Positions 7,413 through 42,677 of a stretch of DNA of 64,000 bases are shown piece by piece; position 1 is the stretch's first letter; each line of letters opens with the position of its first letter. Position numbers and translations under genes: made by a program. This DNA is from an uncultured Nitrospirales bacterium. Its GTDB lineage: Bacteria; Hydrogenedentota; Hydrogenedentia; Hydrogenedentales; GCA-2746185. The notes beneath the pieces are model-generated. The model was not told the DNA's origin. It worked only from the letters and a program-made list of their open reading frames with translations, and made no database searches. The stretch spans positions 31,477 through 95,476 of the forward strand of contig CAZUJL010000011.1 of assembly GCA_964620045.1 (NCBI GenBank). Reading direction: 5' to 3'.

Positions 7413-7433
7413 GACATCGCTACAAATGACAAT

Positions 7434-7476
7434 CGGCCCGCGGAGACGATCTCCGCGGGCCGATTTGTGTTTTTCG
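7434..7476 (+). terminator. Rho-independent terminator-like hairpin (13-bp stem CGGCCCGCGGAGA/TCTCCGCGGGCCG) followed by a T-rich tract
   Basis: Read directly from the sequence, immediately 3' of CDS 6144..7412. Confidence 0.6.
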
Positions 7477-7544
7477 TCCGTTAAACAAAAGTCGACTCAC
7501 GGATGCTTTCATGGTGCTCTGTGGTGAGCTGACGGAGTAGAGCG

Positions 7545-8834: not shown

Positions 8835-8911
8835 TGGCGTACCCGGAAGGATTCGAACCTCCGACCTCTTGGTCCGTAGCCAAGCGCTCTATCCAGCTGA
8901 GCTACGGGTAC
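8835..8911 (-). tRNA. tRNA-Arg (anticodon ACG)
   Basis: Manual fold: acceptor stem GTACCCG/CGGGTAC, D-arm GCTCAGCTGGATAGAGC, anticodon loop CTACGGA, T-arm GGTTCGAATCC, genomic CCA. Confidence 0.85.
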
Positions 8912-9086
8912 GCAGGAATGGCAGCCGCAGAGTGTAGCAAATGACGGCGGGGCGCTCAACTGCGCGGGCATCTGGCTGACCTGCATGGAAAATTCCGTGG
9001 CGTCCCTGAATGACCGGGCCTGCGCGAGGCGGACTATCCGTATCAAAGATGAGTCCGCTTCTGGAATTTCGTAGTCTTTCCCTGAC

Positions 9087-9974
9087 ATGGACACTTCATT
9101 GTTGCGGGAAAAACTCGATGCGCTGTATGCGCGCCTCAACCGTCGCGCGTTCGTATCGCCCGACCCGCTCGAAGTCGTGTATCGCTATGAAGACCCGCGC
9201 GATCGGGAGGTTGCTGGATTAATCGCGGCGGGTCTGGCCTATGGCCGTGTCGCGCAGATTCTGCGCAACCTGCATGCCTTGCTCGATACGCTCGGGCCGT
9301 CGCCCGCGGCGCGAATCCGGCAAAAAGGGGGCGCGGCGCTCGCCGGTGCGCCGGAATTTCGCCATCGATGGACCGATGCTGCGGAAATGAGCGCCTTTCT
9401 CGATGCCATCGGCGAAGCGCTGCATCGGCACGGTTCGCTTGAAGCGTGTTTTCTCGCGCACCGTGCGGCGCACGCGGAACACACGCTCGGCGCGCTTGAA
9501 GGATTCACGCGTGAATTGCGCAAGGGCGGTCCGCCCACAAGCTTGCTCTCCGCGCCGGAAAAAGGCAGCGCGTGCAAGCGGCTTCATCTTTATCTGCGCT
9601 GGATGGTGCGCCGTGACGATGTCGATCCGGGTTGCTGGAAAACCGTGTCACCGCGGATGCTGCTCATCCCGCTCGACACGCACATGCACCGGCTTTCGCG
9701 CGCGCTGGGCCTCACCAAACGCAACCAGGCAAACCTTGCGACGGCAATCGAAATCACCGAAGCCTTCCGGCGCATCAACCCGGATGATCCGCTGAAATAC
9801 GATTTCGCGCTGACCCGGCTGGGAATTCGCGGCGAGCTCGATCCGCAGGATTTTCTGCGCGAATGCAATGTGCCACAGGCGCGGTTGCAAAAACTATGGC
9901 CGCGAAACGGGGCTACGCCGCGCGCGCCACGCCGGCCGGGACTGTCGACACGACGGACGTCGCCACGCCCGTGA
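9087..9974 (+). CDS. TIGR02757/DUF2400-family protein (distant HhH-GPD-like)
   Basis: Family recognised by eye, including an Endo III-like LIPLDTHMHRLSRALGL segment. The 3' end overlaps ispE convergently. Confidence 0.5.
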   Translation: MDTSLLREKLDALYARLNRRAFVSPDPLEVVYRYEDPRDREVAGLIAAGLAYGRVAQILRNLHALLDTLGPSPAARIRQKGGAALAGAPEFRHRWTDAAEMSAFLDAIGEALHRHGSLEACFLAHRAAHAEHTLGALEGFTRELRKGGPPTSLLSAPEKGSACKRLHLYLRWMVRRDDVDPGCWKTVSPRMLLIPLDTHMHRLSRALGLTKRNQANLATAIEITEAFRRINPDDPLKYDFALTRLGIRGELDPQDFLRECNVPQARLQKLWPRNGATPRAPRRPGLSTRRTSPRP

Positions 9975-10810
9975 ACTGTGCGGCCACGCGCTCGGCATGC
10001 GCGCGATCCTTGCACAACCCAAAGAGGGTCGGCCCGCTGCCGCTCATCAGCGCACCCGCACAGCCCGCATCGAGCAACCGCTGCTTCATCACGGCCAACT
10101 CGGGGTATTCCAAAAACACCGGTGTCTCCATCGCGTTGTAAAACACATCGGCAATCGCTCCGCGCGCGACTGCGCCGAGCACGCCTTCGAAACTCGGCGT
10201 GATGCCGTGGATGCGTTCCTCGCGGCTCTTGCGCAGCGCCGGATGGTTGTAGACGCGCGCGGCACTCACTTCGAGCGCGGGATGCAGCAACACGAACCAG
10301 CTCTCGCGCAACGGATCGAGCGCCTGCAAAACTTCGCCGCGGCCTATGCCACGCGCCGTGCCGCCGGACACCAAAAAAGGCACGTCGGATCCGATTTCGG
10401 CGCCGAGCGCGCGCAGCGATTCGCTGGAAAGGTTTGTCTGCCAGGACTCGTTCAGCGCGACCAACACGGCGGCCGCGTCCGTCGAGCCGCCGGCCAGTCC
10501 TGCTGCCACGGGAATCCGCTTGGTGAGCGCGATCCGTGCACCACGACCCGGGGCATGCCGATCGCGCAGCAGCGATGCCGCGCGCAACGCGAGGTTGTCA
10601 TCCTTCTCCAGCGCGGCGATGTTGCAGGTCAGCGTTAGTTCGCCGGCGGCCGGTGTAACGTGGATCTCGTCGGCAAGGCCGACGGTCTGAAAAATTGTTT
10701 CGATGTCATGGTATCCATCGGGTCGGCGATCGATCACCGACAGATACAGATTGATCTTCGCAAAGGCGTTGTAACGGGCCGGTGCACTCGCGGCCGACCG
10801 CGTGTCGGGC
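9913..10810 (-). CDS. ispE: 4-diphosphocytidyl-2-C-methyl-D-erythritol kinase
   Basis: N-terminal FAKINLYLSV...RRPDGYHDIETIF and the GHMP-kinase motif PVAAGLAGGSTDAAA. The start ATG overlaps the upstream stop (TAATG). Confidence 0.85.
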
Positions 10811-10811
10811 A

Positions 10812-12428
10812 TTAGGGCGCGTTCCCGCCCTTCTTCGCCGTCTGCGCCGGCTCGGCCAGGCAGCACGCACGACCCACCGCGTCGCGCACATCCTTCTTCG
10901 GCGTGCCAGTCACTTCCACGGGGCCTTCGTACGCGGAAATCGCGGTTGCCAGGTCTTTCGAGACGGTTGAAATTTTGTCCGTGTCCACTTGCACCGGGCC
11001 CGAAGACGCGCCATAGGCCACGAGCGCTTCCGTGGAATTAATCGCTTCGCGCCAGCGCGACAGTTCGCCGCCGATCGTGAGTGCCGGTGACGGCATCACC
11101 GGACGATCGCGCACGGCTTCCGACAACGCCTGGAAGGCGAACAGGTCCACCTGCGCGCGCGTCACGTTGAACTTTTCCAGCACGTCGTCTGGCATCGTGG
11201 ACGGGCCGACGACGAAGAACGTGTAGCCCATGCCCGCCAGTTTCTCGGCGGCTTTCTTCACCTGTTCGCGCGCCTGCGGCTTGCTCAAATCGAGCCAGCG
11301 CGTACCATCCGCGGCGGCCACGGTCCAATCCTTCGTCTCGTCCGTCGCCAGCGGATCAAACGTAATCCCCGGTTTCATGCCGCGCTTCACAAGTTCGCCG
11401 GCCACCTTGCTCATGTCTTTCGGGTAACCCGGTTCCTTGCCCTGCAACGAACCCGAGGCCGCCTGCCAACCCGCCGGCACCAGCACGTGGTCCACGGAAT
11501 GATCCACCCACGCCTCGGCGATTTTGTACACTTCGGCCGCGGGCGCACCGCGCTGCGCCGTCGCCCAGCCGCGCGGGGCCACCGGGCCTTGCGCAGGCTG
11601 ACGGCCTTGCGCATCCGCCCACGCGTAAAACTTCGAAACTTCGCCCGCCTGCGGCACAAACTGCGACATCCATACCGGGTCGCAGCCAACCTTCGTGCCC
11701 GGCTTGATCGCGAGCAGCGGCAAGTAGCGGCAATGCACGGCGCCCACATACGACTTGCCGGAGGGCTGGAGATCGACCGACGAATTCATCATGCCCGACT
11801 GCAGCAAGCCAATGCCGAGTGTCATCGCGGGTTTCTTCACTTCGAACACAACCAGGCCGGCCGAGGCGCCGTCGTTCACGACCGAGTAGTTGCCGCGGCG
11901 CTGTGTGCGCGCCTGGGTCACCACGGTCGCATCGCCGATATCGGCCACCGCGCCCGGATCGAACACCACCGGCCGCACTTCCTTGATCAGCACGGGTTTC
12001 TTACCCAGGTTTGTCATGTTCAGATGCACCAGCATCGCGGGGTGGTCCAGCAGCCGCGATACGGAGAAGTCGATTTCGAGCTCATCGGGCGTCACGAAGA
12101 CAGAATGGAAGCGGGTGCCCTTACCGAGCGGGCCATCGAAGGATTCCCGGGAATCGCGCACGGCCTTCAGCGAGCTCAGGCGCAGCACGCGGCCGTCGGC
12201 ATACTCCAGCTCGCACTGCGCGTCCTTCACGAGCACGCCCAAGCCGTTGACCTCGATCATCCATTCGGCGGTCTGCACGTCGACTTTCAGGACCGAACGA
12301 TCGCCCTCGAATGAATAGTGGTCACGCAGCGCCCACGGCTTGTAATCCGCTTTCGGCGCATCGGCCGCCATGGCAGCGCCAGCAACAGCCAGCAGCGCCA
12401 ACCCAAGGCACACCCGGAATTTACACAT
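10812..12428 (-). CDS. Secreted protein of unknown function
   Basis: Start at MCKFRVCLGLALLAVAGAAMA (signal peptide) with a GGGGG Shine-Dalgarno just upstream. Long, well-balanced ORF; translationally coupled to ispE. Confidence 0.6.
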   Translation of the reverse strand: MCKFRVCLGLALLAVAGAAMAADAPKADYKPWALRDHYSFEGDRSVLKVDVQTAEWMIEVNGLGVLVKDAQCELEYADGRVLRLSSLKAVRDSRESFDGPLGKGTRFHSVFVTPDELEIDFSVSRLLDHPAMLVHLNMTNLGKKPVLIKEVRPVVFDPGAVADIGDATVVTQARTQRRGNYSVVNDGASAGLVVFEVKKPAMTLGIGLLQSGMMNSSVDLQPSGKSYVGAVHCRYLPLLAIKPGTKVGCDPVWMSQFVPQAGEVSKFYAWADAQGRQPAQGPVAPRGWATAQRGAPAAEVYKIAEAWVDHSVDHVLVPAGWQAASGSLQGKEPGYPKDMSKVAGELVKRGMKPGITFDPLATDETKDWTVAAADGTRWLDLSKPQAREQVKKAAEKLAGMGYTFFVVGPSTMPDDVLEKFNVTRAQVDLFAFQALSEAVRDRPVMPSPALTIGGELSRWREAINSTEALVAYGASSGPVQVDTDKISTVSKDLATAISAYEGPVEVTGTPKKDVRDAVGRACCLAEPAQTAKKGGNAP

Positions 12429-21565: not shown

Positions 21566-23104
21566 TTACTTCGCGAGTTCGCCAGGGATCGTGATTGTCT
21601 GGCCGTTGCCGATGGGCAGCGTCAGTTTCAGCGCGTCGCCCTCGACGGTGCCGGCGATGGACATCGGATCCTGACCGGGAACCATCGCGGTGCCGGTGAA
21701 GCTGGTGCCGGTCCACACGATGTCCTTCACGGCGGCGCGGCCGACGATCTGGCCGAACTTCACGTACCAGCCGCCTTCGCCCGATTTCGGGATGTGCAGC
21801 GCGCTCGGCTCAAGCTGCGGGCCGTTCGCCTGGATCATTACTTTGAAGACATCGCCCGGGTGCGCCGCGGCGAGTTCCGCGAGCTTCGCGATCACGGGGC
21901 TGTCGGCGGTCGCGTCTTTCGGACTCACGCCTTCGGCCACGACATAGTCCACGAAGCCGATCATCATTTCGTCGTACGACTCGGGACCGAAGCTGATGTC
22001 TTTGGTCGGGTCCGGGTTGTGCGGGTTGTTCGACGAGTTGTCCCAGTGCGCGACGCAATCGATGCGCGAACCCTTCGGCACGGACACCGGCTCGTCGAAT
22101 TCATACACCGTCTGCCAGTTGAAGTCGTACTTGCTCACCTTGAGCAGGTCGCGCGTCTGGCCGTCGGGCGTCGTCAGCGTGTAGCTGAAATCCTTGCCAC
22201 GGTAGTGCATGTGCGGTGTCAGCGTGTGAATGATGCTGTCCTGCGCGAAGGTGAAGGTCGAAGTCGCTTCGTAGTTCGAATCGCCGGCCGGGATGCGGAA
22301 ATCGGCGTTCATCACCCACAGGTTGACGAGCTCCTTCTGCACGTCCTTCGCCTCGGCGAAGTGCAGGCCCACGCGCGTCTTGTCTTTCGTCGCTTCGCCG
22401 GTCAGGTGGTAGTGCATGTCGCCCACGATCGGCTGGCCCTTCTTCAGCAGGCGCGCCGTGCCATCGGGGAAGGAATCCGGGCCCGCGCCCGCGGCCCACG
22501 CGCTGATCCAGCCGTTCGGGTTGCCCTGGCTGCCCTGCCACAGGATCACGTGGTGCACGACCTTCGAGTTGCCCGGGAGAATTTCCACGCCCGTGATCCA
22601 CTTGTCTTCGGCGAAGTCTGTCTTGCCGACGAGGTTGTAGAACTCATCCGAACCGGTCGCCGGGAGATCGATTTCATCGAAGGTCACGACGTAGTCCGGT
22701 TCGCCCAACTGCCATTCGCCCGTCGGGAATTTCGGGGCCACGGGGAGGTCAGACTTGTTGCCTTCCGGCGCGCCGGCCTTCGCCCATTCGAGGATCAGAT
22801 CTTTTTCATCCTGCGTGAGCGAGCGATCGTTCGAGAAAGGGCCAAAGCCTTTGTCGGCATGCCACGGGGGCATCACATTGTCGCCGACATTTTTCTGAAT
22901 CGCCTTCACCCACGGCCGGACTTCGTCGTAGCTCAGGAGCGACATCGGACCAATCTGGCCCGGGCGGTGGCACTCGACGCACTTGGCGTTCATAATCGGC
23001 GCGACGTCTTTGCTGTAGGTCGGCTTCGCGGCGTCAGCGGTCCCGCCGATCAAACCAGCCGCGCCCACCGTGCACGCCGCCACTATTCCCTGAATCGCTT
23101 TCAT
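21566..23104 (-). CDS. Secreted cytochrome c (CxxCH) / copper-monooxygenase-like fusion; paralog of 6144..7412 with an extra roughly 110 aa C-terminal domain
   Basis: Signal peptide, KDVAPIMNAKCVECHRP, the VVHHV / MHYH / PHMHYRGK clusters, and YDFNWQT...WDNSSNNPHNPDP. It is collinear with the protein from 6144..7412. Confidence 0.6.
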   Translation of the reverse strand: MKAIQGIVAACTVGAAGLIGGTADAAKPTYSKDVAPIMNAKCVECHRPGQIGPMSLLSYDEVRPWVKAIQKNVGDNVMPPWHADKGFGPFSNDRSLTQDEKDLILEWAKAGAPEGNKSDLPVAPKFPTGEWQLGEPDYVVTFDEIDLPATGSDEFYNLVGKTDFAEDKWITGVEILPGNSKVVHHVILWQGSQGNPNGWISAWAAGAGPDSFPDGTARLLKKGQPIVGDMHYHLTGEATKDKTRVGLHFAEAKDVQKELVNLWVMNADFRIPAGDSNYEATSTFTFAQDSIIHTLTPHMHYRGKDFSYTLTTPDGQTRDLLKVSKYDFNWQTVYEFDEPVSVPKGSRIDCVAHWDNSSNNPHNPDPTKDISFGPESYDEMMIGFVDYVVAEGVSPKDATADSPVIAKLAELAAAHPGDVFKVMIQANGPQLEPSALHIPKSGEGGWYVKFGQIVGRAAVKDIVWTGTSFTGTAMVPGQDPMSIAGTVEGDALKLTLPIGNGQTITIPGELAK

Positions 23105-23267: not shown

Positions 23268-24971
23268 TTAGCGGTGTCGAATCCGCGCCAGCATCAACGG
23301 ATGCAGCAGGAACGGCAGCAGCGGCACTACCGAAATGCCCACCCACAGGGGCCAATTCATCGGGTGCGGAAATCGCTGCGCCCAATCTTTCGTGCCGGGC
23401 GGCACTTCCCACTGCACCATGGAATGCGCGAAGGCCCAGCTATATGCGAGCCACAGCGCGGCGCACACCCACGGCACGGCAGGGTGCAGCAGTCCGCGCC
23501 GGTTCGCCTGCCACGCGAGCACGAACAGGCCCAGCACCGCCAAACCTGCCCCCGCCCAATACGCGACGGGCGACCCCGTCGCTGCGTATTCCGTGGCCTT
23601 GGCAGGATCCAGCAGACCCACCAACGCACCGCCGAGCAACGCGCCGCGGAGCGGCACAAGCAGAATCAAAAAAGCGCCCGCGGCGAAGAGGTAGCTCGCC
23701 GGCCATGCGCACGCCCACATGAGCACGTACAAGAACCCGAAGTGCATCGCCACCACAAGCGCCTGCGGCAGGTGCGTGTAACCCTGGTGCAGGAACGCGC
23801 CGAAGCCGGTGGACTCACCCTGCGACCGCACGAATGCCTCGATCGCGAGCACGATGCCGGCGAGTTCCATCAGCGCGAGCAGCCCGCCGACGCCAATCAC
23901 GATCAGGCGCGCGTTCGAGATGCGGGTGAGCGTGAGTGGACGCGTGAGCAGATAACTCGAGTTCGAGTTCCAGTGGCCGCCGCGCATGAACAGCACGCCG
24001 CCGACCATCAATCCGCCCAGAAACGCGGCGAGGAACAGCCCCATCCACACGTACTGCGCGCTGGAGAACCAGTCGATGCGGAACAACGGCTCGCCGGAGG
24101 ACTTGCCGGTCACGTTCGTTGCGCGGAACAGCCCCACGACCAGCGGCATGCCGATGAAGTAGGCGGCCGCGGATCCGCCGACATAAATCGGCAGGAGCAG
24201 TCCGTATTGCCGCCATTCGAACCAAAACTGCGCCGCACGCGCGGAGCCGAAGGCGCGTCGTACACGAGTCTTCGCCACGGTCACGCTACGCCGCGGCAGA
24301 CTCGCCGCCCAGCCGCCGCGCCGCTGCACGACCAGTACGGCACACGTAAGTAGCGTCACAATGACCAGGGTCACACCGAACACGATCGCGCCCCGTGCGG
24401 GTGCGCTGCCGTCGAACAAGGTCCGCACCCAGGGCCGTTGCACGAGCGCGGCCAAGCTGCCGAAATACAGCACGAAGGAGACCAGCGCCACGCGCGGAGA
24501 GGCCTTGCCCATCGTGTAGGCCCAGAGCTGCGCGATCGGCATGAAGGCCATCGCGCCGAGCACGGGCTTCCACCACGTCATCTCTACCTTTAGCACGAAC
24601 GGCAACGGCACCGCCGCCGCGAGCGACACCACCGCGCCGACGGATGCGCCAAACGCGAGGTGGATAAGGGCCAATTTCCATGTGCGCAACGGCATGCGCA
24701 GCACACGATCCGGCAAGCCGATTATCAGGCGCTCCGCGTCGCTGTTGCTCAGGATCACGGCGGCCGCGCCGACGAGATTTGCGACGCCAATCAGCATCAG
24801 CGCGATCATGAAATCTTCGGAGGCGTCGCGGTTTTGCGCGCGCAACCCCTGCGCCTCGGCCAACCACAAGCCCACAAACGCCAGCGCAAGCCCCGCGAAC
24901 ACGATCAGGAGAATCTTGCGCACGCGCCGCCAGAGGCCGGCGTACAGCGTCCATACCGCGCGGTTCGCCAT
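23268..24971 (-). CDS. Polytopic membrane protein; probable ABC-2-type transporter permease
   Basis: At least 12 predicted TM helices. Its start overlaps the stop of the ABC ATPase gene immediately upstream. Confidence 0.55.
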   Translation of the reverse strand: MANRAVWTLYAGLWRRVRKILLIVFAGLALAFVGLWLAEAQGLRAQNRDASEDFMIALMLIGVANLVGAAAVILSNSDAERLIIGLPDRVLRMPLRTWKLALIHLAFGASVGAVVSLAAAVPLPFVLKVEMTWWKPVLGAMAFMPIAQLWAYTMGKASPRVALVSFVLYFGSLAALVQRPWVRTLFDGSAPARGAIVFGVTLVIVTLLTCAVLVVQRRGGWAASLPRRSVTVAKTRVRRAFGSARAAQFWFEWRQYGLLLPIYVGGSAAAYFIGMPLVVGLFRATNVTGKSSGEPLFRIDWFSSAQYVWMGLFLAAFLGGLMVGGVLFMRGGHWNSNSSYLLTRPLTLTRISNARLIVIGVGGLLALMELAGIVLAIEAFVRSQGESTGFGAFLHQGYTHLPQALVVAMHFGFLYVLMWACAWPASYLFAAGAFLILLVPLRGALLGGALVGLLDPAKATEYAATGSPVAYWAGAGLAVLGLFVLAWQANRRGLLHPAVPWVCAALWLAYSWAFAHSMVQWEVPPGTKDWAQRFPHPMNWPLWVGISVVPLLPFLLHPLMLARIRHR

Positions 24972-26251: not shown

Positions 26252-27160
26252 TTATTGCACCCCTTTGGGGTCCAACTCCGCCACGCGCCGGCGGCAGTCG
26301 TCGATCAAATCGATCATGGTGTCGAAGGACTTCCGCGTCTCGGGATTTTTGAACACAATCCTTCGTTGTTCCGGCTGTACCTTCCAGTCTCCCCAGTCGC
26401 CGATCAGGATATCCAGCAACGAGCCCACGTAACCCGTCATGAGCTGGTGAAGCTTGATGAGTTCGAGAATTTCGGAGTTGTTCCGCGATAGACCTCCGAC
26501 GAATTCCGTCCGGATCTTGGCGCGGGCGCTTGTGCCCACACCCCGCTGGATCAACCGCTCGTCGAGCACGGCCTCGATATCGGTAAAGTAGCGCGCGCAC
26601 TCCTCCGCGGCGCGCTCATGATTCGCCACGGCTTCCTTGTACGCCTCAAGCTCCTCCCGGGAAGTTATCTGCGTGACAATGTTGATGAGCATTTGCGTGG
26701 TGCGATCCGCTGTGCTCATCAGGTTGTTCACCGACTCGCGGATATCGTCCAAGAGTTCCCGCATTGCGGCGTACGCGCGGCCTTCGTCGATATCGTCGGG
26801 TGCCGTCGCATAGGGGTGTCCCGTCAGATATTTCTCGGTGTAGACAATCGGGTCCCAAGGGCCAATATTGCGGGCCGCGATCACGGCCCGCTCGATGCGC
26901 TCGGCGCGGACGTGGGCAACAGACCCAATGATCAGGATAATGCCGAGCAGAATCCCGACGCTGTATCCAACCTCCGCGGCGATCTCGCTGCGGTCGCTCA
27001 CCATCCACGCCGCCCCGCCGAGGATCAACGACAGAATGATCACTCCCGCGACCACGGCCGAAAGGAACGCGGCCGAACTGGCCGGCAGGGCGTCGCTGAG
27101 CAAAGGCACCACGGCCATCAGCAGGAGAAACAGGGTCAAGCTGGCGCTTACGATTCGCAT
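26252..27160 (-). CDS. Hypothetical membrane protein (3 N-terminal TM helices plus a helical soluble domain); paralog of 27549..28253
   Basis: Shares the C-terminal motif [IL]x[DE]WG[DN]W and a collinear helical segment with the downstream paralog. Confidence 0.55.
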   Translation of the reverse strand: MRIVSASLTLFLLLMAVVPLLSDALPASSAAFLSAVVAGVIILSLILGGAAWMVSDRSEIAAEVGYSVGILLGIILIIGSVAHVRAERIERAVIAARNIGPWDPIVYTEKYLTGHPYATAPDDIDEGRAYAAMRELLDDIRESVNNLMSTADRTTQMLINIVTQITSREELEAYKEAVANHERAAEECARYFTDIEAVLDERLIQRGVGTSARAKIRTEFVGGLSRNNSEILELIKLHQLMTGYVGSLLDILIGDWGDWKVQPEQRRIVFKNPETRKSFDTMIDLIDDCRRRVAELDPKGVQ

Positions 27161-27248
27161 GGGGTCGCTCTACGTTTCTACGAATCGTAACAATATACAG
27201 AAAAGGGGCCAGCGCGTTATCGCGCTGGCCCCTTTTAGACTTCGGTTT

Positions 27249-27420
27249 TTACGCCGCGACCGTGCTACCGCCGCGCACTTCGTCGCCGAAGCGCACCGAT
27301 ACGATTTGCGATACGCCGCGTTCCTGCTGGGTCACGCCGTACATGCCGGCAGCCTGCGCCATCGTCTGTTTGTTGTGCGTAATCACGACGAACTGGGTGT
27401 CGACCGTGAACTCTTCGACC
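27249..27420. repeat. Direct repeat copy A (~170 bp); partner at 28287..28458
   Basis: Aligned by eye: a core of about 150 bp differs at one position, with flanks becoming degenerate. Confidence 0.85.
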
Positions 27421-27452
27421 ACACTATGCAAATGCCGATGTTTACGATTCAT
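27249..27452 (-). pseudogene. Detached duplicate of the last ~57 codons of smc
   Basis: 27268-27417 is identical to 28306-28455 apart from one mismatch. It encodes the same C-terminal peptide as SMC (VEEFTVDTQFVVITHNKQTMAQAAGMYGVTQQERGVSQIVSVRFGDEVRGG). Confidence 0.7.
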
Positions 27453-27548
27453 CGCACCGGTTACGGTTTTGCGAATAGCACGGACGTTCTCCGCGCGCCT
27501 GTTAAAAAAAGTGCGCTTAGGTTGCAGCGTGCCTCCCGTTACCGATCC

Positions 27549-28253
27549 TCACGGGGCGGCTGCAGCTTCCTCCAGGAGTTTGACCTCTTGGCGTTTCGCA
27601 ACAACCAACGCTTGGGCTGCTTGTGCCTTTTCAAACAAAGCTTGGTACTTCGCGTGCATTTCAGAATCCGGGATCATGACTGCGACGTTTTCCCGGTCGA
27701 CAGACCAATTTCCCCATTCCTGGATCGCTAGCTTTAACATGCCCTGAAGGTGTGCCGCAAGATCAAGATTCGCGGCGCAGTATTCATTCACGAGCTGTTG
27801 ACCTTGGGGATCCTCCTTCGCATGCCATGCCGCCATTTCTGCCTGGCGGCGAGCGGGACTGATACCGTGCAATTGCATTTCCTGTTCCCAAGATTCACCG
27901 GCGGCGTTGTACGCTTGAATGAAACGCTGTGTTGCGGCTTCGAAGGTTTCGAGTCGTTGCAACGCCGTTTCGAGTTCCTCGCGTGAATCGGCAATCCCCA
28001 TGTTCACGTCCGGTTGGGCGACCACATCGTTCATGGCCGTCTTCCAATCGGACTTGAGTTGCGCGGCGCGTTTCTCCACTGCTGCAGCGGCAATAGCCAC
28101 GCGTTCATCGTCGATGTGTGTTTGCAGGGCTTCGTTAGCATCGCGGGATTGCTTCGCCGCATAGAACCAAAACGCGGCAGCCAATATAACTAGGACCGCA
28201 GTAGCGCAATTCGCGATGACATTGAGGCGTCGCATACCGCACCACCATGTCAC
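27549..28253 (-). CDS. Hypothetical membrane-anchored protein (1 TM plus helical domain); paralog of 26252..27160
   Basis: N-terminal TM helix and the motif AIQEWGNWSV (compare LIGDWGDWKV in the paralog). Confidence 0.55.
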   Translation of the reverse strand: MTWWCGMRRLNVIANCATAVLVILAAAFWFYAAKQSRDANEALQTHIDDERVAIAAAAVEKRAAQLKSDWKTAMNDVVAQPDVNMGIADSREELETALQRLETFEAATQRFIQAYNAAGESWEQEMQLHGISPARRQAEMAAWHAKEDPQGQQLVNEYCAANLDLAAHLQGMLKLAIQEWGNWSVDRENVAVMIPDSEMHAKYQALFEKAQAAQALVVAKRQEVKLLEEAAAAP

Positions 28254-28286: not shown

Positions 28287-28458
28287 TTACGCCGCCGCGT
28301 GGCTCCCGCCGCGGACTTCGTCGCCGAAGCGCACCGATACGATTTGCGATACGCCGCGTTCCTGCTGGGTCACGCCGTACATGCCGGCAGCCTGCGCCAT
28401 CGTCTGTTTGTTGTGCGTAATCACGACGAACTGGGTGTCGACCGTGAACTCTTCAACC
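28287..28458. repeat. Direct repeat copy B (the 3' end of intact smc)
   Basis: See copy A. Confidence 0.85.
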
Positions 28459-31400
28459 ATCGACACAAAGCGGCCGATGTTCGCGTCGTCCAGCGGGGCG
28501 TCCACTTCGTCGAGCACGCAGAACGGGCTCGGCTTGGCCTTGAAGATGCCGAACAGCAGCGCGATCGCCGTCATGGCCTGCTCGCCGCCGGACAGCAGCA
28601 TGATGCTCTGCGGCTTCTTGCCGGGTGGACGCGCTTCGATCTCGATGCCGCACTCCAGCGGGTCGTTTTCGTCGGTCAGGAACAGGCGCGCCTGGCCGCC
28701 GTTGAACAACCGTCGGAAGTAGTTCTTGAAGTTTTCCGCGACCGCGTTGAAGGTCTCCACGAACATCGCGGTGATGGTCTTGTCGATGCGCTGGATCACG
28801 CCGAGCAGCGCTTCGCGCGCCTTGCGCAGGTCCTGATCCTGCGCCACCAGGAACGCGTGCCGCTCGACGAGCGCCTCGTGTTCCTCGATCGCCATCAGGT
28901 TCACCGGGCCGAGCCGTTCCAGACGCTCGCGGATATCGGCGACCATCTTTTCGCGCGTCTCCGCGTCGTGCTCGTCCGCGCCGACTTCTTCTTCGGTCAG
29001 CGACGCCAATGCCACGTGGTACTCGTTCAAAATCCGCTCGCGGAAGAATTCCAACTGGCTCTCGTCGTGCCGCAGTTCCATCTCGGTCTTGTGCACGAGC
29101 GTCTGCGCCTCGCGCACTTCCTCGCGCAGCACCTTGAGCGCCTTTTCGATCGTGTCGGATTCATCGAGCACTTCCTGGCGCCGGTTCTCGGCTTCGACCA
29201 CGCGCGTCCGCGCTTCCTCGCGCGCTTCGGACAAGGCCTTCGAGCGTTCGAGGTGTTCGGTAATGTCGGTTTCGAGCAGGCCCACCTGCGTGCGGAAGTC
29301 TTCGATCGCCTGTGCGCGACGGCCGGCTTCGCTGCGCGCATGCGCACACTCGCGCTGCACGCGCTGGTGCTCGCGCGCGGTCTCTTCGACCGACTTCGCC
29401 AGTTCAGCGATGTGCACGCGCAGGTCCGCCAGCGCCGCCGCCATCGTGGCGTGCGCCGTGCGCGCTTCGGCCGAGGCCTCCTGCGCCATGGTCAGCGCGC
29501 GCTCTAGCGACATTGCTTCCAGTTCCAGCGCCGCCGCCGCGTCCTGCTGCTGCGTGCGCTGGGTCGTGAAATCGTCGCGGCGCGAGACGAGCACATTGCG
29601 CTCGGCCTCGTTGTGTTCGGCGGATTTCTCCAACCGGGCGATTTCGCGCGACAGGCGGTCGCGTTCCGCAGCCACTTTGGCCCGGCCCGTGCGCACCGCG
29701 TCCATGCGCTGAGTCAGCGCCTCGCGCAGCTCGGTCTGCGCCGCCAAATGCAACGCCACGTCTTCGTTTTTCCACGCTGCGTGCGCCAGGCGGAATTCCA
29801 CGTCCGCCAGCGCCGCGTCGAGCCGCTCGATCTCCGCGCTGCGGCCGAGCAACCCGCGGCTTTCGTTTGCCGCGCGGCCGCCGGTCACCGCGCCCGAGGG
29901 CACGATCACCGAACCGTCCGCCGTCACGAAGGATCGGCGCGGCCGAACTTCGCGCGACAGGCGCAGGGCCTCGTCGAGCGAATCTGTAAGGTACGTGTCG
30001 CCCATCAAATAACGCACGATCGCGCTGTAGCGTTCATCGAAATTGACAAGGCTCAGCAGCGAACGCGCGGGGATGCTCTCGGCGTTTTCCGTCACGGCCG
30101 CTTCAATCGCATCGAGCGGCAAGAACGTCACGCGGCCGGCTTGTTGTTCCGACAAATAGGCAATCGCGGCCGCGGCATCTTCGCTGCGCTCGACCACGAC
30201 ACAATTCACATACGCGCCCAGCGCCGCTTCGACCGCGCGCTCGAATTCCGGGGCCGTGCGCACGAGATCGCCGACCGGCCCGATCACGCCGGACGCCGCC
30301 GGATGCGCCGTCTGCTTTGCGTGCATGATCGCTTTCACGCCCGCCGCGAAACCTTCGTACGAGTCGCGCAGTTCGCGGAAACTCGTCAGACGCGCTTCGA
30401 CACGGCCGCGCTCTTCGCGCAACCCTTGCCAAATCGCGCGCGCGGTTTCGCGTTCTTCGCGCAGGCGTTTCTCCGCGATGTTCGCTTCGCTGAGTTCGCT
30501 CTCGACACCCGCCAGCGCGGCGGCTTCCGCCTGCTCGCGCTGCTCGGCATCGGCCAGCGCAGCATTCAACGATTCGCGCTGCCGTGCTTCCTCGGCGAGA
30601 CGCGTATCGAGCGCCGCGAGCTGTTCTTCCATGTGCGCGATGTTGACGGTGAGCTTCTCAATCGCCGTCTCGGCGCGCGAGCGCTGGTTCATCGCATCTA
30701 CTGTCTTACGCCGCGATTCTTCAAGTCGCGCGTCCGCTTCCTTCACGCGCTCCGACGCCTGCTGCAGCTCGGCCTGGCGCGCGGCGAGCACGGCGTCGAT
30801 TTCGGCCTGCTCCGCACGCAACGCCTCGAGCCGCGCGGCCACTTCAGTGCCCTGCGTTTCGAGCGAATTCCCTTGTATTTCCAGAGATTCCCGCTCCGCC
30901 GCGGCCTTCTGCTCCTGGTCGCGCGAGAACGTGATCTGCTGCCGCACGAGCGCCACGTGCCGCTCGATTTTTTCCATCTCCACGTCGATCTCGTGCACCG
31001 CTTCGCGCCGCGCGTGGAGGTTGCGATCCGCTTCGAGTTTCGCGAGGCTGAGTTCTTCGTGCCGCGCCTCGAGCTCGCTCATCTCGGCGTTTTTCTTTTC
31101 GTACGTGTCCTGCGCCTGCGCGAAGCGTTCGTTCAACTCGGCCAATTTCGCGGTGAGGTCGCGCTGCTTGAGCCACGACGCGCGGATTTCCAGCTCGCGC
31201 AGTTGCGTGGTGAGTTCGCGGTGCCGCAGCGCCGCGTTTACCTGGCGCTTCAGCGATCGCATCTGCCGCTCGACTTCGTGAACGATGTCGCCGAGGCGCA
31301 ACAGATTTTGATCCGCGCCTTCGAGTTTGCGCATCGCGATCTTCTTGCGCGTTTTGTATTTGATGATCCCGGCGGCTTCTTCGAACAGGAAGCGGCGGTC

Positions 31401-31865
31401 TTCCGGCTTCGAGCTGAGCACCATGCCGATCTTGCCCTGCCCGATCATCGAGTACGCGTTCGTCCCGATGCCGGTGTCCATGAACAGTTCCTGCACATCG
31501 CGCAGGCGGCATGGCGCCTTGTTGATCAGGTACTCGCTCTCGCCCGAGCGGTACACGCGGCGGGTGACCTGCACCTCGGCAAATTCGATCGGCAGCGCGC
31601 CGTCGGCGTTGTCGAAAGTCAGCGTCACTTCGGCCATGCCCATGGCCGCGCGCTCTTCGCTGCCGTTAAAAATCACGTCCTGCATATGCGCGCCGCGCAG
31701 GCTCTTGGGCTTCTGCTCGCCCAGCGCCCAGCGCATCGCGTCGAGAATATTGCTCTTCCCGCAGCCGTTCGGCCCCACCACCGCGGTCATGCCCGCGTCG
31801 AGGTCCACAATGGTTCGGTCCGCGAAGGACTTAAAGCCGATCATTTCGATTCGTTTGAAATGCAT
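28287..31865 (-). CDS. smc: Chromosome partition protein SMC
   Basis: MHFKRIEMIGFKSFADRT...VVGPNGCGKSNILDAMRWALGEQ, a long coiled coil, the LSGGEQAMTAIALLF signature, and a C-terminal Walker B segment. Confidence 0.9.
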   Translation of the reverse strand: MHFKRIEMIGFKSFADRTIVDLDAGMTAVVGPNGCGKSNILDAMRWALGEQKPKSLRGAHMQDVIFNGSEERAAMGMAEVTLTFDNADGALPIEFAEVQVTRRVYRSGESEYLINKAPCRLRDVQELFMDTGIGTNAYSMIGQGKIGMVLSSKPEDRRFLFEEAAGIIKYKTRKKIAMRKLEGADQNLLRLGDIVHEVERQMRSLKRQVNAALRHRELTTQLRELEIRASWLKQRDLTAKLAELNERFAQAQDTYEKKNAEMSELEARHEELSLAKLEADRNLHARREAVHEIDVEMEKIERHVALVRQQITFSRDQEQKAAAERESLEIQGNSLETQGTEVAARLEALRAEQAEIDAVLAARQAELQQASERVKEADARLEESRRKTVDAMNQRSRAETAIEKLTVNIAHMEEQLAALDTRLAEEARQRESLNAALADAEQREQAEAAALAGVESELSEANIAEKRLREERETARAIWQGLREERGRVEARLTSFRELRDSYEGFAAGVKAIMHAKQTAHPAASGVIGPVGDLVRTAPEFERAVEAALGAYVNCVVVERSEDAAAAIAYLSEQQAGRVTFLPLDAIEAAVTENAESIPARSLLSLVNFDERYSAIVRYLMGDTYLTDSLDEALRLSREVRPRRSFVTADGSVIVPSGAVTGGRAANESRGLLGRSAEIERLDAALADVEFRLAHAAWKNEDVALHLAAQTELREALTQRMDAVRTGRAKVAAERDRLSREIARLEKSAEHNEAERNVLVSRRDDFTTQRTQQQDAAAALELEAMSLERALTMAQEASAEARTAHATMAAALADLRVHIAELAKSVEETAREHQRVQRECAHARSEAGRRAQAIEDFRTQVGLLETDITEHLERSKALSEAREEARTRVVEAENRRQEVLDESDTIEKALKVLREEVREAQTLVHKTEMELRHDESQLEFFRERILNEYHVALASLTEEEVGADEHDAETREKMVADIRERLERLGPVNLMAIEEHEALVERHAFLVAQDQDLRKAREALLGVIQRIDKTITAMFVETFNAVAENFKNYFRRLFNGGQARLFLTDENDPLECGIEIEARPPGKKPQSIMLLSGGEQAMTAIALLFGIFKAKPSPFCVLDEVDAPLDDANIGRFVSMVEEFTVDTQFVVITHNKQTMAQAAGMYGVTQQERGVSQIVSVRFGDEVRGGSHAAA

Positions 31866-38847: not shown

Positions 38848-39848
38848 AGCAGCTCCGCGATCTGCACGGCGTTGTAGGCGGCGCCCTTCAGCAGGTTGTC
38901 CGACACGATCCACATATTCAGCGCGCGCGGATGTGATCCGTCTTCACGGATGCGGCCTACGAACGTTTCCCAGTGGCCCGCGGCGGTGGTCGCCAGGGGA
39001 TAGAGCTGATTCGCGAGGTCGTCCTGCACGATCACGCTCGGCGCTTTGCGCAACAGCTCACGCGCCTTGTCGGCCGTCAGCTTCTCGCGCGTTTCTACGT
39101 TGACCGATTCGCTATGGCTCGTGCGCACGGGCACGCGCACAGTGGTCGCGGTCACACGGATGCTGTCGTCGCCCATGATCTTCTTTGTTTCTTTGATCAT
39201 CTTGATTTCTTCGGTCGAGTAGCCGTCGTCTTCAAACGCGGCGCTCTGGGGAATCTGCGGGATGCAGTTGAACGCAATCTGGTGAGGAAAAAGCTGGTTG
39301 ATCGGCTGTTTGCCGTCGAGCACCGCGCGGGTTTGCGCGTCGAGTTCTTCCAGGGCTTTTACGCCCGCGCCGGATACCGCCTGGTAGGTCGATACCACGA
39401 TGCGCTCAATCTTTGCTGCATCGTGCAACGGCTTGAGCACAACCACCATCTGGATCGTCGAGCAGTTCGGGTTGGCGATGATGCCCTTGTGCGTCTTGAT
39501 GGCCGCGCTGTTTACCTCGGGTACCACGAGCGGCACATCGGCATCCATGCGCCATGCGCTCGAATTGTCGATCACTATGCAACCGTCTTTCGCCGCGAAC
39601 GGCGCGAATTTCTTGCTTGTGCTACCGCCGGCGCTGAACAGCGCCACTTCGACGCCCTTGAACGAGGACTCCGTGAGCACTTCCACCGGGATTTCTTCGC
39701 CGCGGAACGTCATCCGCTTGCCTTTGGACCGCTCGGAGGCGAGCAATTTGATTGATTTTACGGGGAATTTGCGCTCTTCGAGGGTCTGCAACATGCGCTG
39801 GCCGACCAATCCGGTGGCCCCGGCGACGGCGACGGTCTTACTGGACAT
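38844..39848 (-). CDS. asd: Aspartate-semialdehyde dehydrogenase
   Basis: VAVAGATGLVGQ at the N-terminus and the active-site NPNCSTIQ motif; the 3' end overlaps the epimerase gene convergently by 4 nt. Confidence 0.85.
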   Translation of the reverse strand: MSSKTVAVAGATGLVGQRMLQTLEERKFPVKSIKLLASERSKGKRMTFRGEEIPVEVLTESSFKGVEVALFSAGGSTSKKFAPFAAKDGCIVIDNSSAWRMDADVPLVVPEVNSAAIKTHKGIIANPNCSTIQMVVVLKPLHDAAKIERIVVSTYQAVSGAGVKALEELDAQTRAVLDGKQPINQLFPHQIAFNCIPQIPQSAAFEDDGYSTEEIKMIKETKKIMGDDSIRVTATTVRVPVRTSHSESVNVETREKLTADKARELLRKAPSVIVQDDLANQLYPLATTAAGHWETFVGRIREDGSHPRALNMWIVSDNLLKGAAYNAVQIAELL

Positions 39849-39920
39849 TGCGATGGCTCCGTTCGGTTGGATGTGGTTCCGGTAGAAGCGGACAGTATGC
39901 CTACTTTCGGCCCCGGTCGG

Positions 39921-39957
39921 CAAGAAGAAAGCGGTGGTTCACGAATGAACCACCGCT
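39921..39957 (-). terminator. Rho-independent terminator downstream of trxA (12-bp stem AGCGGTGGTTCA/TGAACCACCGCT followed by TTCTTCTT)
   Basis: Perfect hairpin with a U-rich tail on the minus-strand transcript. Confidence 0.65.
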
Positions 39958-39979
39958 GATTTCCTTACTTAAATGGTAC

Positions 39980-40294
39980 TTAGGCTGCGTCGATCGCCGC
40001 GGCAATCTTGGCCTTCGGCTGCACGCCTACCAGGCGGCCCTTCTCCTGGCCGTCCTTAATCACGAGCAGGGTGGGGATCGAATTCACGCGGAAGCGCGCC
40101 GCGAGGTCGCCCTCGTTGTCGACGTTTACCTTCGCCACGCGGGCTTTGCCCTGATACTCGCCGGCCAACTCGTCCAGCACGGGCGCAATCATCCGACACG
40201 GACCGCACCACTCCGCCCAGAAGTCCACCAACGTAACGCCGTTGCTTGTTTCTTGGTCGAAGTTTTGCGTCGTCAGTTCAGTTGCTTTGCCCAT
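39980..40294 (-). CDS. trxA: Thioredoxin
   Basis: WCGPC active site; about 104 aa. Confidence 0.9.
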   Translation of the reverse strand: MGKATELTTQNFDQETSNGVTLVDFWAEWCGPCRMIAPVLDELAGEYQGKARVAKVNVDNEGDLAARFRVNSIPTLLVIKDGQEKGRLVGVQPKAKIAAAIDAA

Positions 40295-40462
40295 CTGAAA
40301 TTACCTCCACTCTGGCTTCGAGAAGGAAACCGGCCCCCGGGAACCAATATTCCCGATGCCCTAACACGGTGTGAAGTATACCGTTACCGTGCAATTCCGC
40401 TCAACGCGGCCGTCCGTTCCGTTGAAGGCCGCGCCGATGCACCGTATACTACCGGCCCTTCG

Positions 40463-40552
40463 GGAGAGATGGCCGAGTGGCTGAAGGCGCTCGCTTGGAA
40501 AGCGTGTGTACGTGAAAACGTACCGAGGGTTCGAATCCCTCTCTCTCCGCCA
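40463..40552 (+). tRNA. tRNA-Ser (anticodon GGA) with a long variable arm
   Basis: Manual fold: GGAGAGA acceptor, D-arm GCCGAGTGGCTGAAGGC, anticodon loop TTGGAAA, long variable arm, T-arm GGTTCGAATCC, CCA encoded. Confidence 0.8.
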
Positions 40553-40949
40553 TTCAAGGCTACGAAAATTCTCCCCTGGCGAAATGCGCCGTGACGACTA
40601 CCGAACGGCTGCATGACCAGGCGAAGAAGTTTGCTGACCCTACGCCCTCGACAGCCTAGCAATATGCCATACTGCTCTGCCGTGCAAGATGCACCAATTC
40701 CACATGCGCTAGCGGTTCCGCCAAGATGTCGCCCCAAACACCGGAAGTGCTCTCATAATGTCTATGAGACGAGGTCGAGAATGGGCAGTGGTGATCCTGC
40801 GGTGAGAACCCGCAATGATTTCCACTTTGAGGCCGGCTGTAAAGTGTGATGAACCCAAAGACAAATCTGCCACACACTGGGCGTTGCGCGTGAAATCCCG
40901 TTTAGAGTCTCTGCGACCGAAGAACGCATCAATAGGCCTCCGCGAAAGC

Positions 40950-42677
40950 ATGCCTCATGACGAATTTCTGCGGAGAATCTATATCGGTTGCGCGATTGCG
41001 GCCGTTGCCACGAAGATTTGGCTTACCTTGGCGTTTCAGATGCGTGCCGCGAATACGCCGGCCGATGATCTGTTGTATATGCGGTTAGCAGAGCAAATTC
41101 TCCATGGCGAGTGGCTCGGCCATTATGATCAGTACACGCTGGCAAAAGGACCGTTCTTTTCCATCTGGATTGCCGGCGCGTTCCTTCTCAATATTCCGCT
41201 GTTATTGTCCTACCAGCTTCTACATGCCTTGGCGTGTGTGCTGATGATAATCGCGCTCATGCCGTTACTTCGCCCAAGATTCCTCTGCTTGGCGCTCTTT
41301 CTGTTGCTCCTCTTCGATCCGTCTACATACAGCCCGATCGCATCATGGGTAATCCGTGAAAGCATCTATGCTTCTCTGACGATGATGGTTTTGGCGGGAA
41401 TGATCGCGCTGATTGTGAGACTCGAACGGCGTCCCGGCGCGCTTGTGTTTTGGGCTATCGAACTTGGGATAGCTGCCGGCGCATTTGCAACGTTGCGCGA
41501 AGAGGGCGTTTGGATACTGCCCGCGGTAATATTGGCGTTGCTCTACGCCACGATAATGATCTGTCGTACGGACCGACAAAGGACTGCGAAGTTGGCACTT
41601 GTTTTCATGCCCGCTGCAATCGCGGTCGCATGGGTTCTCGGCATCTGCACGCTAAACCAGCGCTATTACGGAATATTCGAGGTAACCGATTTTAAGAGCG
41701 AAGGCTTCTTGCGAGCGAACGGAGCGCTGATGCGCGTGAAGCATGCCGAAATAAACCAATTCGCGAATGTGCCCAAAGAAGTACGAGAAAAAGTATATAA
41801 GGAGAGCCCCACATTCGCCGAGTTAGAAGTTTACCTTGAGGGTCCCTTGGGGCAAGCGTGGGGAAAGATCTCGGAGAAATGGCTCTCCGGAGGCACCCCC
41901 AACGCGGCCGATATTCGCGGCGGTTTCTTCGTGTGGGCCATGCGCGACGCGGTCGGGAGACTGGGCCATTACCAAACGGCCGCGGAAACAGACGCCTATT
42001 ACACGAAAGTGGCAAACGAAATTAATTCGGCTTGCGACGCGGGCAGACTTGATTGTTGGGCGGAGCGTTCGTCCCTTTTGCCTCCCTGGCGCCGCAGTTT
42101 ATTTACACCCGCAATCGCGAGCATTCGTAAGGGAGTTCGCATGGTGGCAACGCTCGACGAGCTTGATCCGGGTAACATGCCCACGCAAGGGTCCGCCGAT
42201 ATTGCGGTTATGTTCGAGGATTTGGGCCGTTCGCGCCTTAGCCCGCGGGTGTTTCATTCTGAGGAGACTCCGCGGTTAGCAAACCAAGCGCAATTGGACA
42301 AATTTCGATTCGGGGTATTGAATCGGTTGAATCATGCGTTCCGGGTCTTATGGCCTTTCGCGACGGCTGTTGGCTGCTTGTCCTTTCTAATTGCTTGCGT
42401 GATCGAGGTTCGGGTGCGCACATTCGATCCCGTTTTGCCCATTCTCATGGTTTTGATTGCGTCTTTCGCCGCCCGATTGGGAATTCTCGCGCTGGTTTCC
42501 ATCACCTCGTTCGAAGCCATGCAATATCGCTTGCTGCTGCCCGTGTATCCCATGGTGATCCTGTTTTGGTTTCTTTCGACGTATCGCGCGGGAAAGCTCG
42601 GCATTTCGCACCTTTCTGCCGCGCGACGGAGTAGACGCGAAGATGAGAAGTCGGAATTGTCGTCCCGTGCCGGATGA
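40950..42677 (+). CDS. GT-C fold membrane glycosyltransferase (ArnT/PMT-like)
   Basis: A first-loop acidic motif ADDLLYMRLAEQILHGEW resembles ArnT DExRYAEIxREML. Multiple TM helices. About 52% GC. The start could be as early as 40815. Confidence 0.5.
   Translation: MPHDEFLRRIYIGCAIAAVATKIWLTLAFQMRAANTPADDLLYMRLAEQILHGEWLGHYDQYTLAKGPFFSIWIAGAFLLNIPLLLSYQLLHALACVLMIIALMPLLRPRFLCLALFLLLLFDPSTYSPIASWVIRESIYASLTMMVLAGMIALIVRLERRPGALVFWAIELGIAAGAFATLREEGVWILPAVILALLYATIMICRTDRQRTAKLALVFMPAAIAVAWVLGICTLNQRYYGIFEVTDFKSEGFLRANGALMRVKHAEINQFANVPKEVREKVYKESPTFAELEVYLEGPLGQAWGKISEKWLSGGTPNAADIRGGFFVWAMRDAVGRLGHYQTAAETDAYYTKVANEINSACDAGRLDCWAERSSLLPPWRRSLFTPAIASIRKGVRMVATLDELDPGNMPTQGSADIAVMFEDLGRSRLSPRVFHSEETPRLANQAQLDKFRFGVLNRLNHAFRVLWPFATAVGCLSFLIACVIEVRVRTFDPVLPILMVLIASFAARLGILALVSITSFEAMQYRLLLPVYPMVILFWFLSTYRAGKLGISHLSAARRSRREDEKSELSSRAG

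Follow-up and report, generated by a model that had tools for sequence, protein, structure and literature searches.

Two divergent homologues of an undescribed WGxW protein family in a variable slot behind smc, one of them probably acquired

Main finding

The window analysed here is a stretch of 64,000 nucleotides (nt) from contig CAZUJL010000011.1 (positions 31,477 to 95,476 of the forward strand; assembly GCA_964620045.1), deposited for an uncultured Nitrospirales bacterium and placed by GTDB among the Hydrogenedentales. Directly behind smc on its minus strand lie two genes, here called B and A, which encode strongly diverged members of an undescribed family of membrane-anchored proteins that we refer to as the WGxW family after its signature motif. 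The explanation that we favour, with moderate confidence and with the mechanism read from the anatomy of the locus, is that B was acquired horizontally and stacked on a resident A by recombination anchored in smc. We prefer acquisition because the third-position G+C content (GC3) of B stands apart, B is bracketed by two copies of the smc tail, it is closer to a protein of another lineage (P0008) than to A, the junctions of the two B-carrying lineages are unlike and B is absent from close relatives. Related loci are numbered below with L and their proteins with P; the features of the locus are as follows.

28287..31865, minus strand: smc, 1192 amino acids (aa) from MHFKRIEM; left border of the variable slot and homology anchor
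28287..28459, minus strand: live copy of the smc tail, with the terminus GGSHAAA*; in its last codons and in the 33 nt that separate it from B it resembles the smc-B junction of L004
27549..28253, minus strand: gene B, 234 aa from GTG at 28253 or 228 aa from ATG at 28235
27443..27548, minus strand: 3' flank of B; the first ~45 nt past the stop are common with the B unit of L004, the remainder is unrelated to L004
27249..27442, minus strand: displaced (pseudo) smc 3' end, the last ~57 codons, ending GGSTVAA*; its 5' edge (27417-27442) is decayed
27201..27236, minus strand: strong terminator-like hairpin (16-bp stem in which 11 pairs are GC, loop of 4 nt) ahead of a T-rich stretch
27148..27190, minus strand: conserved 5' leader element of A, identified by aligning the sequences ahead of the A-type genes in the window, L001, L002 and L004
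26252..27160, minus strand: gene A, 302 aa, with three N-terminal transmembrane (TM) helices, a helical bundle, WGDW at 256-259, a beta-hairpin and a final helix
25952..26239, plus strand: Rdx (SelW-like) gene (PF10262, 7e-34), convergent with gene A; right border of the slot

Homology of the two genes

An earlier note, made from the letters of the stretch, had placed two open reading frames (ORFs) on the minus strand behind smc, which the ORF list and the Pfam matches of the upstream gene (SMC_N, 6e-70; SMC_hinge, 4e-32) bear out. The minus-strand order runs from smc to B and then to A, beyond which lie the convergent rdx gene and an ABC ATPase gene. The collinear segments and the WGxW motif that the note had picked out by eye as shared by both proteins go beyond chance. 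A direct BLASTP comparison aligns A with B over 154 aa at 16% identity, including the pairs EELEAYK/EELETAL and WGDW/WGNW, with an E value of 9e-5 that is significant at the threshold of 0.01 set beforehand; an hhalign comparison of two small alignments (A with its close relatives and B with its own) returns a probability of 92.7% and an E value of 4e-7 over 157 columns. Protein P0008, which came to light in the exhaustive family search and is encoded in the corresponding slot of another lineage, provides a bridge, matching B with E values of 1e-26 to 1e-28 (33% identity) and A-type proteins with E values of 1e-11 to 1e-13, and because it matches both, A and B are also linked transitively. As judged from these comparisons, A and B are true homologues.

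A duplicated smc end around gene B

The repeat that had been linked to the gene pair proves to be a direct duplication of the smc 3' end. Positions 27249-27421 and 28287-28459 are 95% identical, with decayed homology continuing to about 27442, and they include a perfect run of 140 nt (27277-27416 = 28315-28454). The tail copy is 194 nt long and lies head to tail with the live smc end at a period of 1038 nt; B sits between the copies and is the sole candidate there, no second plausible gene being present between the repeats. The two copies differ by seven mismatches within the last 28 nt, and the encoded peptides differ in about the last five residues only. The displaced copy is read by a 67-aa pseudo-ORF that matches the end of SMC_N (positions 175-219 of 220).

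In L001, the real smc ends in ..GGSTVAA and carries the same hairpin directly after its stop codon, as does the pseudo copy of the window. The hairpin at 27201-27236 is best explained, from this correspondence, as the original smc terminator, now located behind the displaced tail; an Rfam scan around the locus returned only sub-threshold ar35 matches, on this hairpin. The start of gene B lies 33-51 nt past the smc stop codon; in public gene calls it is the ATG at 28235, from which a protein of 228 aa (MRRLNV...) results. No terminator-like site occurs between smc and the hairpin at 27236-27201, and B is now probably transcribed with smc up to the old terminator.

Gene B is compositionally foreign. 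Its GC3 is 0.58 in the window and 0.60 in L004, compared with 0.785 for A and 0.79-0.87 for all neighbours. Gene A, by contrast in composition, has orthologues at the same position behind smc in L001 (76% identity) and L002 (51%) and is best explained as a resident, vertically inherited member of the WGxW family. Its leader holds TTACGATTCG (27181-27190), the exact reverse complement of codons 2-4, CGAATCGTAA (27148-27157), and the motif recurs in L001 (~287-330) and L002 (~262-308). MRIV is the start of all A-type proteins. The predicted leader hairpin buries the AUG of A, with an RNAalifold consensus stem of 12-14 bp at -13.8 kcal/mol; no covariation was found in the stem among the four sequences, a set too small to test it. 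The segment TACGA-T-TCGTA in the leader is a DNA palindrome as well, and the element could act in translational control or as an operator.

A variable slot between smc and rdx

Related loci differ markedly in what they carry between smc and rdx. In L001 and L002, smc runs straight into an A-type gene and B is absent. In L004-L009, smc ends in ..GGSHVAA and is followed by a spacer, a B gene 86% identical to that of the window, a 44-nt remnant of the smc tail and then the gene for the A-type protein P0006, which is only 30% identical to A. The right junction differs between the two B-carrying lineages, with a 194-nt tail copy and a period of 1038 nt in the window as against 44 nt and 863 nt in L004, and the homology of the B units stops ~45 nt past the B stop codon. 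Since the common unit (last smc codons, spacer, B and ~45 nt) is joined to unlike right junctions, the junctions appear to be independent. The gene for P0008, a protein with three TM helices and a B-like C-terminal domain, lies on its contig with an smc-like fragment on one side and rdx on the other, and with no further gene between them.

Elsewhere the slot is empty or differently filled. The C-terminal 300 aa of smc are 91-93% identical in Candidatus Hydrogenedentales contigs, which makes this group the likely source of the window, and in two loci with this level of identity to the window (L016 and L030), smc is followed directly by rdx. In L013 (smc 91% identical), the slot holds ~2.8 kb of other cargo (8910-11649), comprising an ORF for an uncharacterized 145-aa protein, a gene for a TM-anchored Endonuc_Holl protein (PF10107), an IS630-type transposase gene (DDE_3 and HTH) and a MerR regulator gene; neither a WGxW gene nor an smc-tail repeat is present in it. 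More distant Hydrogenedentota (66-68% identity) have unrelated genes behind smc. The family hidden Markov model (HMM) detected no copy in the empty, L013 or distant smc loci. These empty or otherwise occupied slots indicate that A and B are dispensable accessory genes in this clade, and one group of Hydrogenedentales is best explained as having a slot for variable accessory genes between smc and rdx.

Two side observations concern the same contigs. In L030, an extra ORF of 110 aa without a Pfam match (7194-7526) lies between rdx and the ABC ATPase gene, a second small variable spot. The contigs of L016 (VFKU01000467.1) and L018 (CAYPNI010000117.1) are labelled Rhodothermaeota and Nitrospirales, respectively; their smc C-termini are 91% and 83% identical to the Hydrogenedentales one, L016 has the same rdx neighbour, and both contigs are probably mis-binned, to judge from this similarity.

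Acquisition or local duplication

Under the acquisition explanation, A would be the resident gene, inherited vertically with its own leader and promoter region and evolving fast. Incoming DNA made up of the end of smc, B and a short 3' flank would have recombined with the chromosome, smc serving as a one-sided homology anchor, and the far end would have joined illegitimately inside the recipient's own smc tail. By this event smc would have gained new last codons (..SHAAA), and the old tail (..STVAA), the old terminator and A would have been shifted downstream. Such an event would resemble homology-facilitated illegitimate recombination (HFIR); a Campbell-type single crossover of a circular fragment is an alternative route that would yield the same product.

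The principal rival is an in situ tandem duplication, by unequal crossing-over, of the smc tail together with a family gene, after which the genes diverged to ~16% identity, B lost two TM helices and the tail was kept alike by repeated conversion from the live smc. The head-to-tail repeat with its period of 1038 nt fits such an origin, the identical 140-nt core beside a decayed 5' edge resembles a conversion tract, and B occurs together with an smc-tail remnant in L004-L009 too. Several observations oppose it. The GC3 of B is far from that of A and of every neighbour, and in sequence B stands closer to P0008, a protein of another lineage, than it does to A. Among close relatives whose flanks are 91-96% identical, B or both genes are missing, and the right junction is unlike in the two lineages that carry B; furthermore, a useless tail copy would have had to outlast the divergence of the genes to 16% identity. 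We consider local duplication rather unlikely. The description of A and B as tandem paralogues in the earlier note thus holds for their homology and not for a local duplication, against which the GC3 of B, its bracketing by smc tails and its greater closeness to P0008 speak.

Some points weigh against acquisition. The 140-nt identity beside the decayed edge could have arisen by recent gene conversion within a duplication of greater age. A donor genome with smc, B and rdx alone was not recovered, and P0008 is just 33% identical to B. L004-L009 are short contigs whose lineage distance to the window is poorly known, and the argument for horizontal exchange draws on 114 nt of smc plus B.

If B was indeed acquired in this way, the locus would be a small and clear case of a foreign gene captured through one-sided homology in an essential gene. 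The scar left behind, in which the gene end is duplicated and the terminator displaced, could then help annotators to recognize such events.

Rates of evolution and selection

When the window is compared with L001, identity is 76.5% for A, as against 88-96% for Rdx, the ABC ATPase, the 567-aa and 512-aa proteins encoded beyond it and the smc tail. For the same pair, A has a ratio of nonsynonymous to synonymous substitution rates (dN/dS) of 0.29, whereas the neighbours, whose dS is comparable, lie at 0.05-0.09. For B and its counterpart in L004, dN/dS is 0.32 at a dS of 0.21, which is below the dS that the flanking genes show for the window and L001 (0.3-0.8); the A-type genes beside the two B copies are nonetheless only 30% identical. 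Values below 1 for both genes indicate that A and B are functional and under purifying selection. Their evolution is relaxed or partly diversifying, positive selection lying beyond these data.

High speed at a fixed position is seen in other members too. The syntenic members of two Puniceicoccales genomes are 41% identical, compared with 74-88% for most of their neighbours, and on two Chthoniobacterales-type contigs the member is 26% identical, Fur and SufCBD being 60-91% identical there. Fast sequence change in a gene that keeps its position is, on these sequence comparisons, a property of the family and not of this locus. Of the diversifying pressure that the earlier note had suspected, the variability of the locus and a several-fold faster evolution are borne out; diversifying selection is not, given dN/dS values of ~0.3 and a speed that is family-wide.

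The WGxW family

An exhaustive HMMER search with a five-sequence profile (E<=1e-3), with representatives taken from clusters at 50% identity, returned at least 156 representatives of the family, A and B among them, as against just 3 and 2 close relatives of A and B, respectively, in word-indexed protein searches. The alignments to the other 154 lie mostly at profile positions 160-296 and cover their C-termini, defining a domain of ~130 aa. Against the family HMM, A reaches 2e-61 and B 8e-44; both were in the seed, so that independent support for their membership comes from the BLASTP, hhalign and P0008 comparisons. Nearly all members are 260-370 aa long, and hydropathy assigns three TM helices to 78 of them and one to 32. 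The W-G-x-W motif lies 45-60 residues before the C-terminus and is followed by a beta-hairpin and a final helix; in an alignment of 150 sequences, no columns other than its W, G and W reach 90% conservation. Sources include Hydrogenedentota, Verrucomicrobiota (Ruficoccus, Puniceicoccales and Chthoniobacteraceae) and metagenome-assembled genomes labelled Haliangiales and Nitrospirota, and the members with named sources are annotated throughout as 'hypothetical protein'.

The earlier reader had been unable to assign a family by eye, and curated libraries name none either: Pfam, NCBIfam, PHROGs and PADLOC gave no above-threshold match for A, B or their relatives, and the PADLOC-DB defence models gave no family at E<=1 for A or B. 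A sequence-profile search of the PDB returned only noise from TM helices or de novo designs, and a profile scan of genome contigs with the family alignment returned no locus. Single, non-recurring, sub-cut-off matches to Dor1, isoafricanol synthase and an Rz-like spanin were dismissed. The only curated family to recur is DUF3053/YiaF (PF11254), an uncharacterized family of proteobacterial envelope proteins. It matches 6 of 150 members weakly and in collinear order along the C-terminal domain (best E 8e-4; ~16 bits, the cut-off being 23.9), and it matches neither A nor B themselves. YiaF resembles the WGxW family in being envelope-anchored and mostly helical, with a strand-turn-strand and then Y-N-x-L near the C-terminus, but it is without the WGxW motif. 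Membership was rejected on an hhalign comparison of the 150-sequence profile with E. coli YiaF (0.5% probability, E 0.11, 36 columns), a comparison that used one E. coli sequence and leaves room for a very remote link. In E. coli, yiaF affects colonization resistance in biofilms (PMC3646849). The WGxW family is undescribed and has no database name, and its homologues did not turn out to be ubiquitous proteins with a known function.

The earlier note had raised the prospect of homologues recurring next to smc or in defence islands; among the contexts examined, they adjoin smc only in one Hydrogenedentales subclade and have housekeeping surroundings elsewhere, and none lies in a defence island, with PADLOC also without a match. 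Outside the Hydrogenedentales, members are single genes that never adjoin smc in these contexts, and the family HMM finds one copy per locus there, as against A and B, and no third copy, in the window. Puniceicoccales members lie behind pfk or ribonucleotide reductase genes. On two Verrucomicrobiota-type contigs, a one-TM member directly follows fur-sufC-sufB-sufD (L026:5695-7828 and L027:5531-7873), and other members lie between a hybrid histidine kinase gene and ccoI/cbb3-oxidase genes, or next to a cupin gene. No partner gene common to the member neighbourhoods emerged. The L026 member overlaps the sufD stop codon by 17 nt, which suggests that the WGxW gene is a member of the suf operon there; the window shows no link of this kind.

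A sizeable family is thereby defined by its WGxW signature, a confident predicted fold and a probable periplasmic location in poorly studied phyla. Its value is mainly that of a lead for work on the cell envelope of Verrucomicrobiota and Hydrogenedentota; it opens no long-standing question.

Fold, topology and possible role

The count of three TM helices in A and one in B that had been made by eye agrees with both hydropathy and AlphaFold models. The AlphaFold2 model of A, from a multiple sequence alignment of 5 sequences, has a mean predicted local distance difference test (pLDDT) score of 77, rising to 82-93 in the C-terminal domain; that of B, from 77 sequences, reaches a pLDDT of 94.5 and a predicted template modelling score of 0.80. 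The models agree in that the last TM helix extends as a long stalk helix (residues 2-72 in B), followed by four more helices. The WGxW motif closes the penultimate long helix, a hairpin follows (259-270 in A, 178-187 in B) and the long C-terminal helix comes last. Gene B thus encodes one N-terminal TM helix running on into a stalk helix of ~70 residues, a helical bundle, WGNW (174), the beta-hairpin and the long C-terminal helix. Inspection of B by eye revealed no cleavable signal peptide with a canonical AxA site and no lipobox.

Charge distribution points to the orientation of these proteins in the membrane. In 67 of the 78 three-TM members, the second loop carries more positive charge than the first, and among the one-TM members the N-terminal flank is the more positive in 19 and the C-terminal flank in 9. 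A topology in the inner membrane with the N-terminus in and the C-terminus out, which would place the WGxW domain in the periplasm, is the arrangement that we infer from these family-wide charge statistics. A alone is ambiguous, and the strongly positive residues after its third TM helix would, taken by themselves, favour a cytoplasmic C-terminal domain.

Neither a conserved catalytic-looking set of residues nor an enzyme fold was found in A or B, and we therefore read them as binding or scaffold proteins, most likely non-enzymatic and acting at the cell envelope. Both lists of fold matches are topped by de novo designs or helices of G-protein-coupled receptors, which marks the matches as non-specific. 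Identity to PhoU-like six-helix bundles, periplasmic four-helix-bundle sensor domains and S. aureus 2AP3 is 4-14%, and none of these generic helical bundles has the WGxW/beta-hairpin element.

A second rival concerns what the stacking is for. A and B might be envelope immunity or exclusion proteins directed against a periplasm-acting toxin or phage, the locus being a protective cassette array in which stacking widens protection. Its anatomy mirrors the anchor-mediated displacement arrays of type VI secretion system (T6SS), Rhs and contact-dependent growth inhibition (CDI) loci, the slot is dispensable and variable, dN/dS is raised while both copies remain under purifying selection, the predicted location is periplasmic and the L013 slot holds a nuclease-like gene with an insertion sequence (IS) element. 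On the other side, neither A nor B matches any immunity family in sequence or fold, matches to PADLOC, PHROG and Pfam immunity families are nil, and no toxin, T6SS or CDI gene lies nearby, the surroundings being core housekeeping genes. Members elsewhere are single and syntenically stable beside suf, pfk or cco genes, and dN/dS values below 1 fit a loosely constrained helical scaffold equally well. We hold this explanation to be unlikely. Still more speculative is its extension, that WGxW proteins form a new class of periplasm-facing protective envelope proteins whose divergent alleles are stacked by Hydrogenedentales via the smc anchor; if the protective explanation were true, it would mean that the logic of orphan immunity arrays can be uncoupled from a toxin or secretion locus and is spread over Verrucomicrobiota, Hydrogenedentota and other phyla.

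Assembly and a partnership with SMC

That the locus is an assembly artefact, in which strains with smc-B and smc-A were falsely joined via the 140-nt smc tail, is very improbable. The source is metagenomic, and Logan contigs of the same strain, which is also present in SRR13076512, SRR13076513 and SRR13076518, do break within the repeat, 146 nt upstream of A. Against this, the flank of B enters the smc tail via a unique decayed junction that a simple strain join would not make, and a path that uses each junction once is exactly the tandem one; moreover, single contigs of L004-L006, from other samples, read through smc tail, B, tail remnant and A-type gene with a repeat of 44 nt. It is scarcely credible that A and B work with SMC, for instance as a membrane tether of condensin with their position functional: B does start 33-51 nt behind the smc stop with no terminator between, and A-type genes lie behind smc in several relatives, but relatives with 91-93% identical smc have an empty gap between smc and rdx, members from other phyla never adjoin smc, the conserved domain is predicted to be periplasmic and there is no similarity to ScpA or ScpB.

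Surroundings of the locus

The wider neighbours of the slot are core housekeeping genes, namely those for RNase Y, an ATPase of the type II secretion/type IV pilus type and dnaN, together with polysaccharide genes and an ABC transporter. Searches against phages and plasmids (tblastn) gave no match, and no toxin, T6SS or CDI gene was found among the neighbours of A and B.

Other parts of the window also carry genes without a Pfam family. A 567-aa polytopic membrane protein is encoded downstream of the ABC ATPase (23268-24971, minus strand), and the gene at 21566-23104 (minus strand) specifies a protein of 512 aa that has a CxxCH motif and a signal-like N-terminus; neither has a Pfam family, and the order of the two genes is kept in relatives. 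Identity to L013 is only 64% for the membrane protein, as against 83% for the ABC ATPase. Between 36000 and 47000, G+C content is 0.51-0.56, compared with ~0.63, and this stretch holds dnaN as well as NAD-epimerase, GDSL-lipase-like, MBOAT and spermine-synthase-like genes. Within it, the successive ORFs 38973-39755, 39752-40594 and 40815-42677 are all without a Pfam match.

Comparison with known systems

Genomic islands and integrative elements that target the 3' ends of genes are flanked by direct repeats (attL and attR) and leave a live gene end supplied by the incoming DNA, and in both respects the insert behind smc is alike. It differs in spanning ~0.9-1.0 kb with B alone and without an integrase or recombinase, and in a repeat of 194 nt in one lineage versus 44 nt in the other, which a site-specific att core would not give. 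A second parallel is with the displacement arrays of Rhs, CDI and T6SS loci, in which the end of an upstream gene and a new downstream gene are inserted by one-sided homology and the resident 3' fragment and downstream gene are retained, just as the pseudo smc tail and the terminator precede A here. In both cases divergent homologues end up stacked, with a piece of the upstream gene ahead of each one. Anchor-mediated, HFIR-like insertion has been proposed for Vibrio T6SS effector-immunity arrays and for Rhs 'C-terminal displacement' (Kirchberger et al. 2017, PMC5361080). By contrast with those arrays, the window has the housekeeping gene smc upstream, where they have a polymorphic toxin whose C-terminal domain varies. 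The peptides encoded by the two smc tails are nearly the same, so that nothing functional is swapped in smc, and the locus has no effector, secretion system or recognized immunity family. The proposed mechanism of insertion is a known kind of event; it is the protein family that is undescribed.

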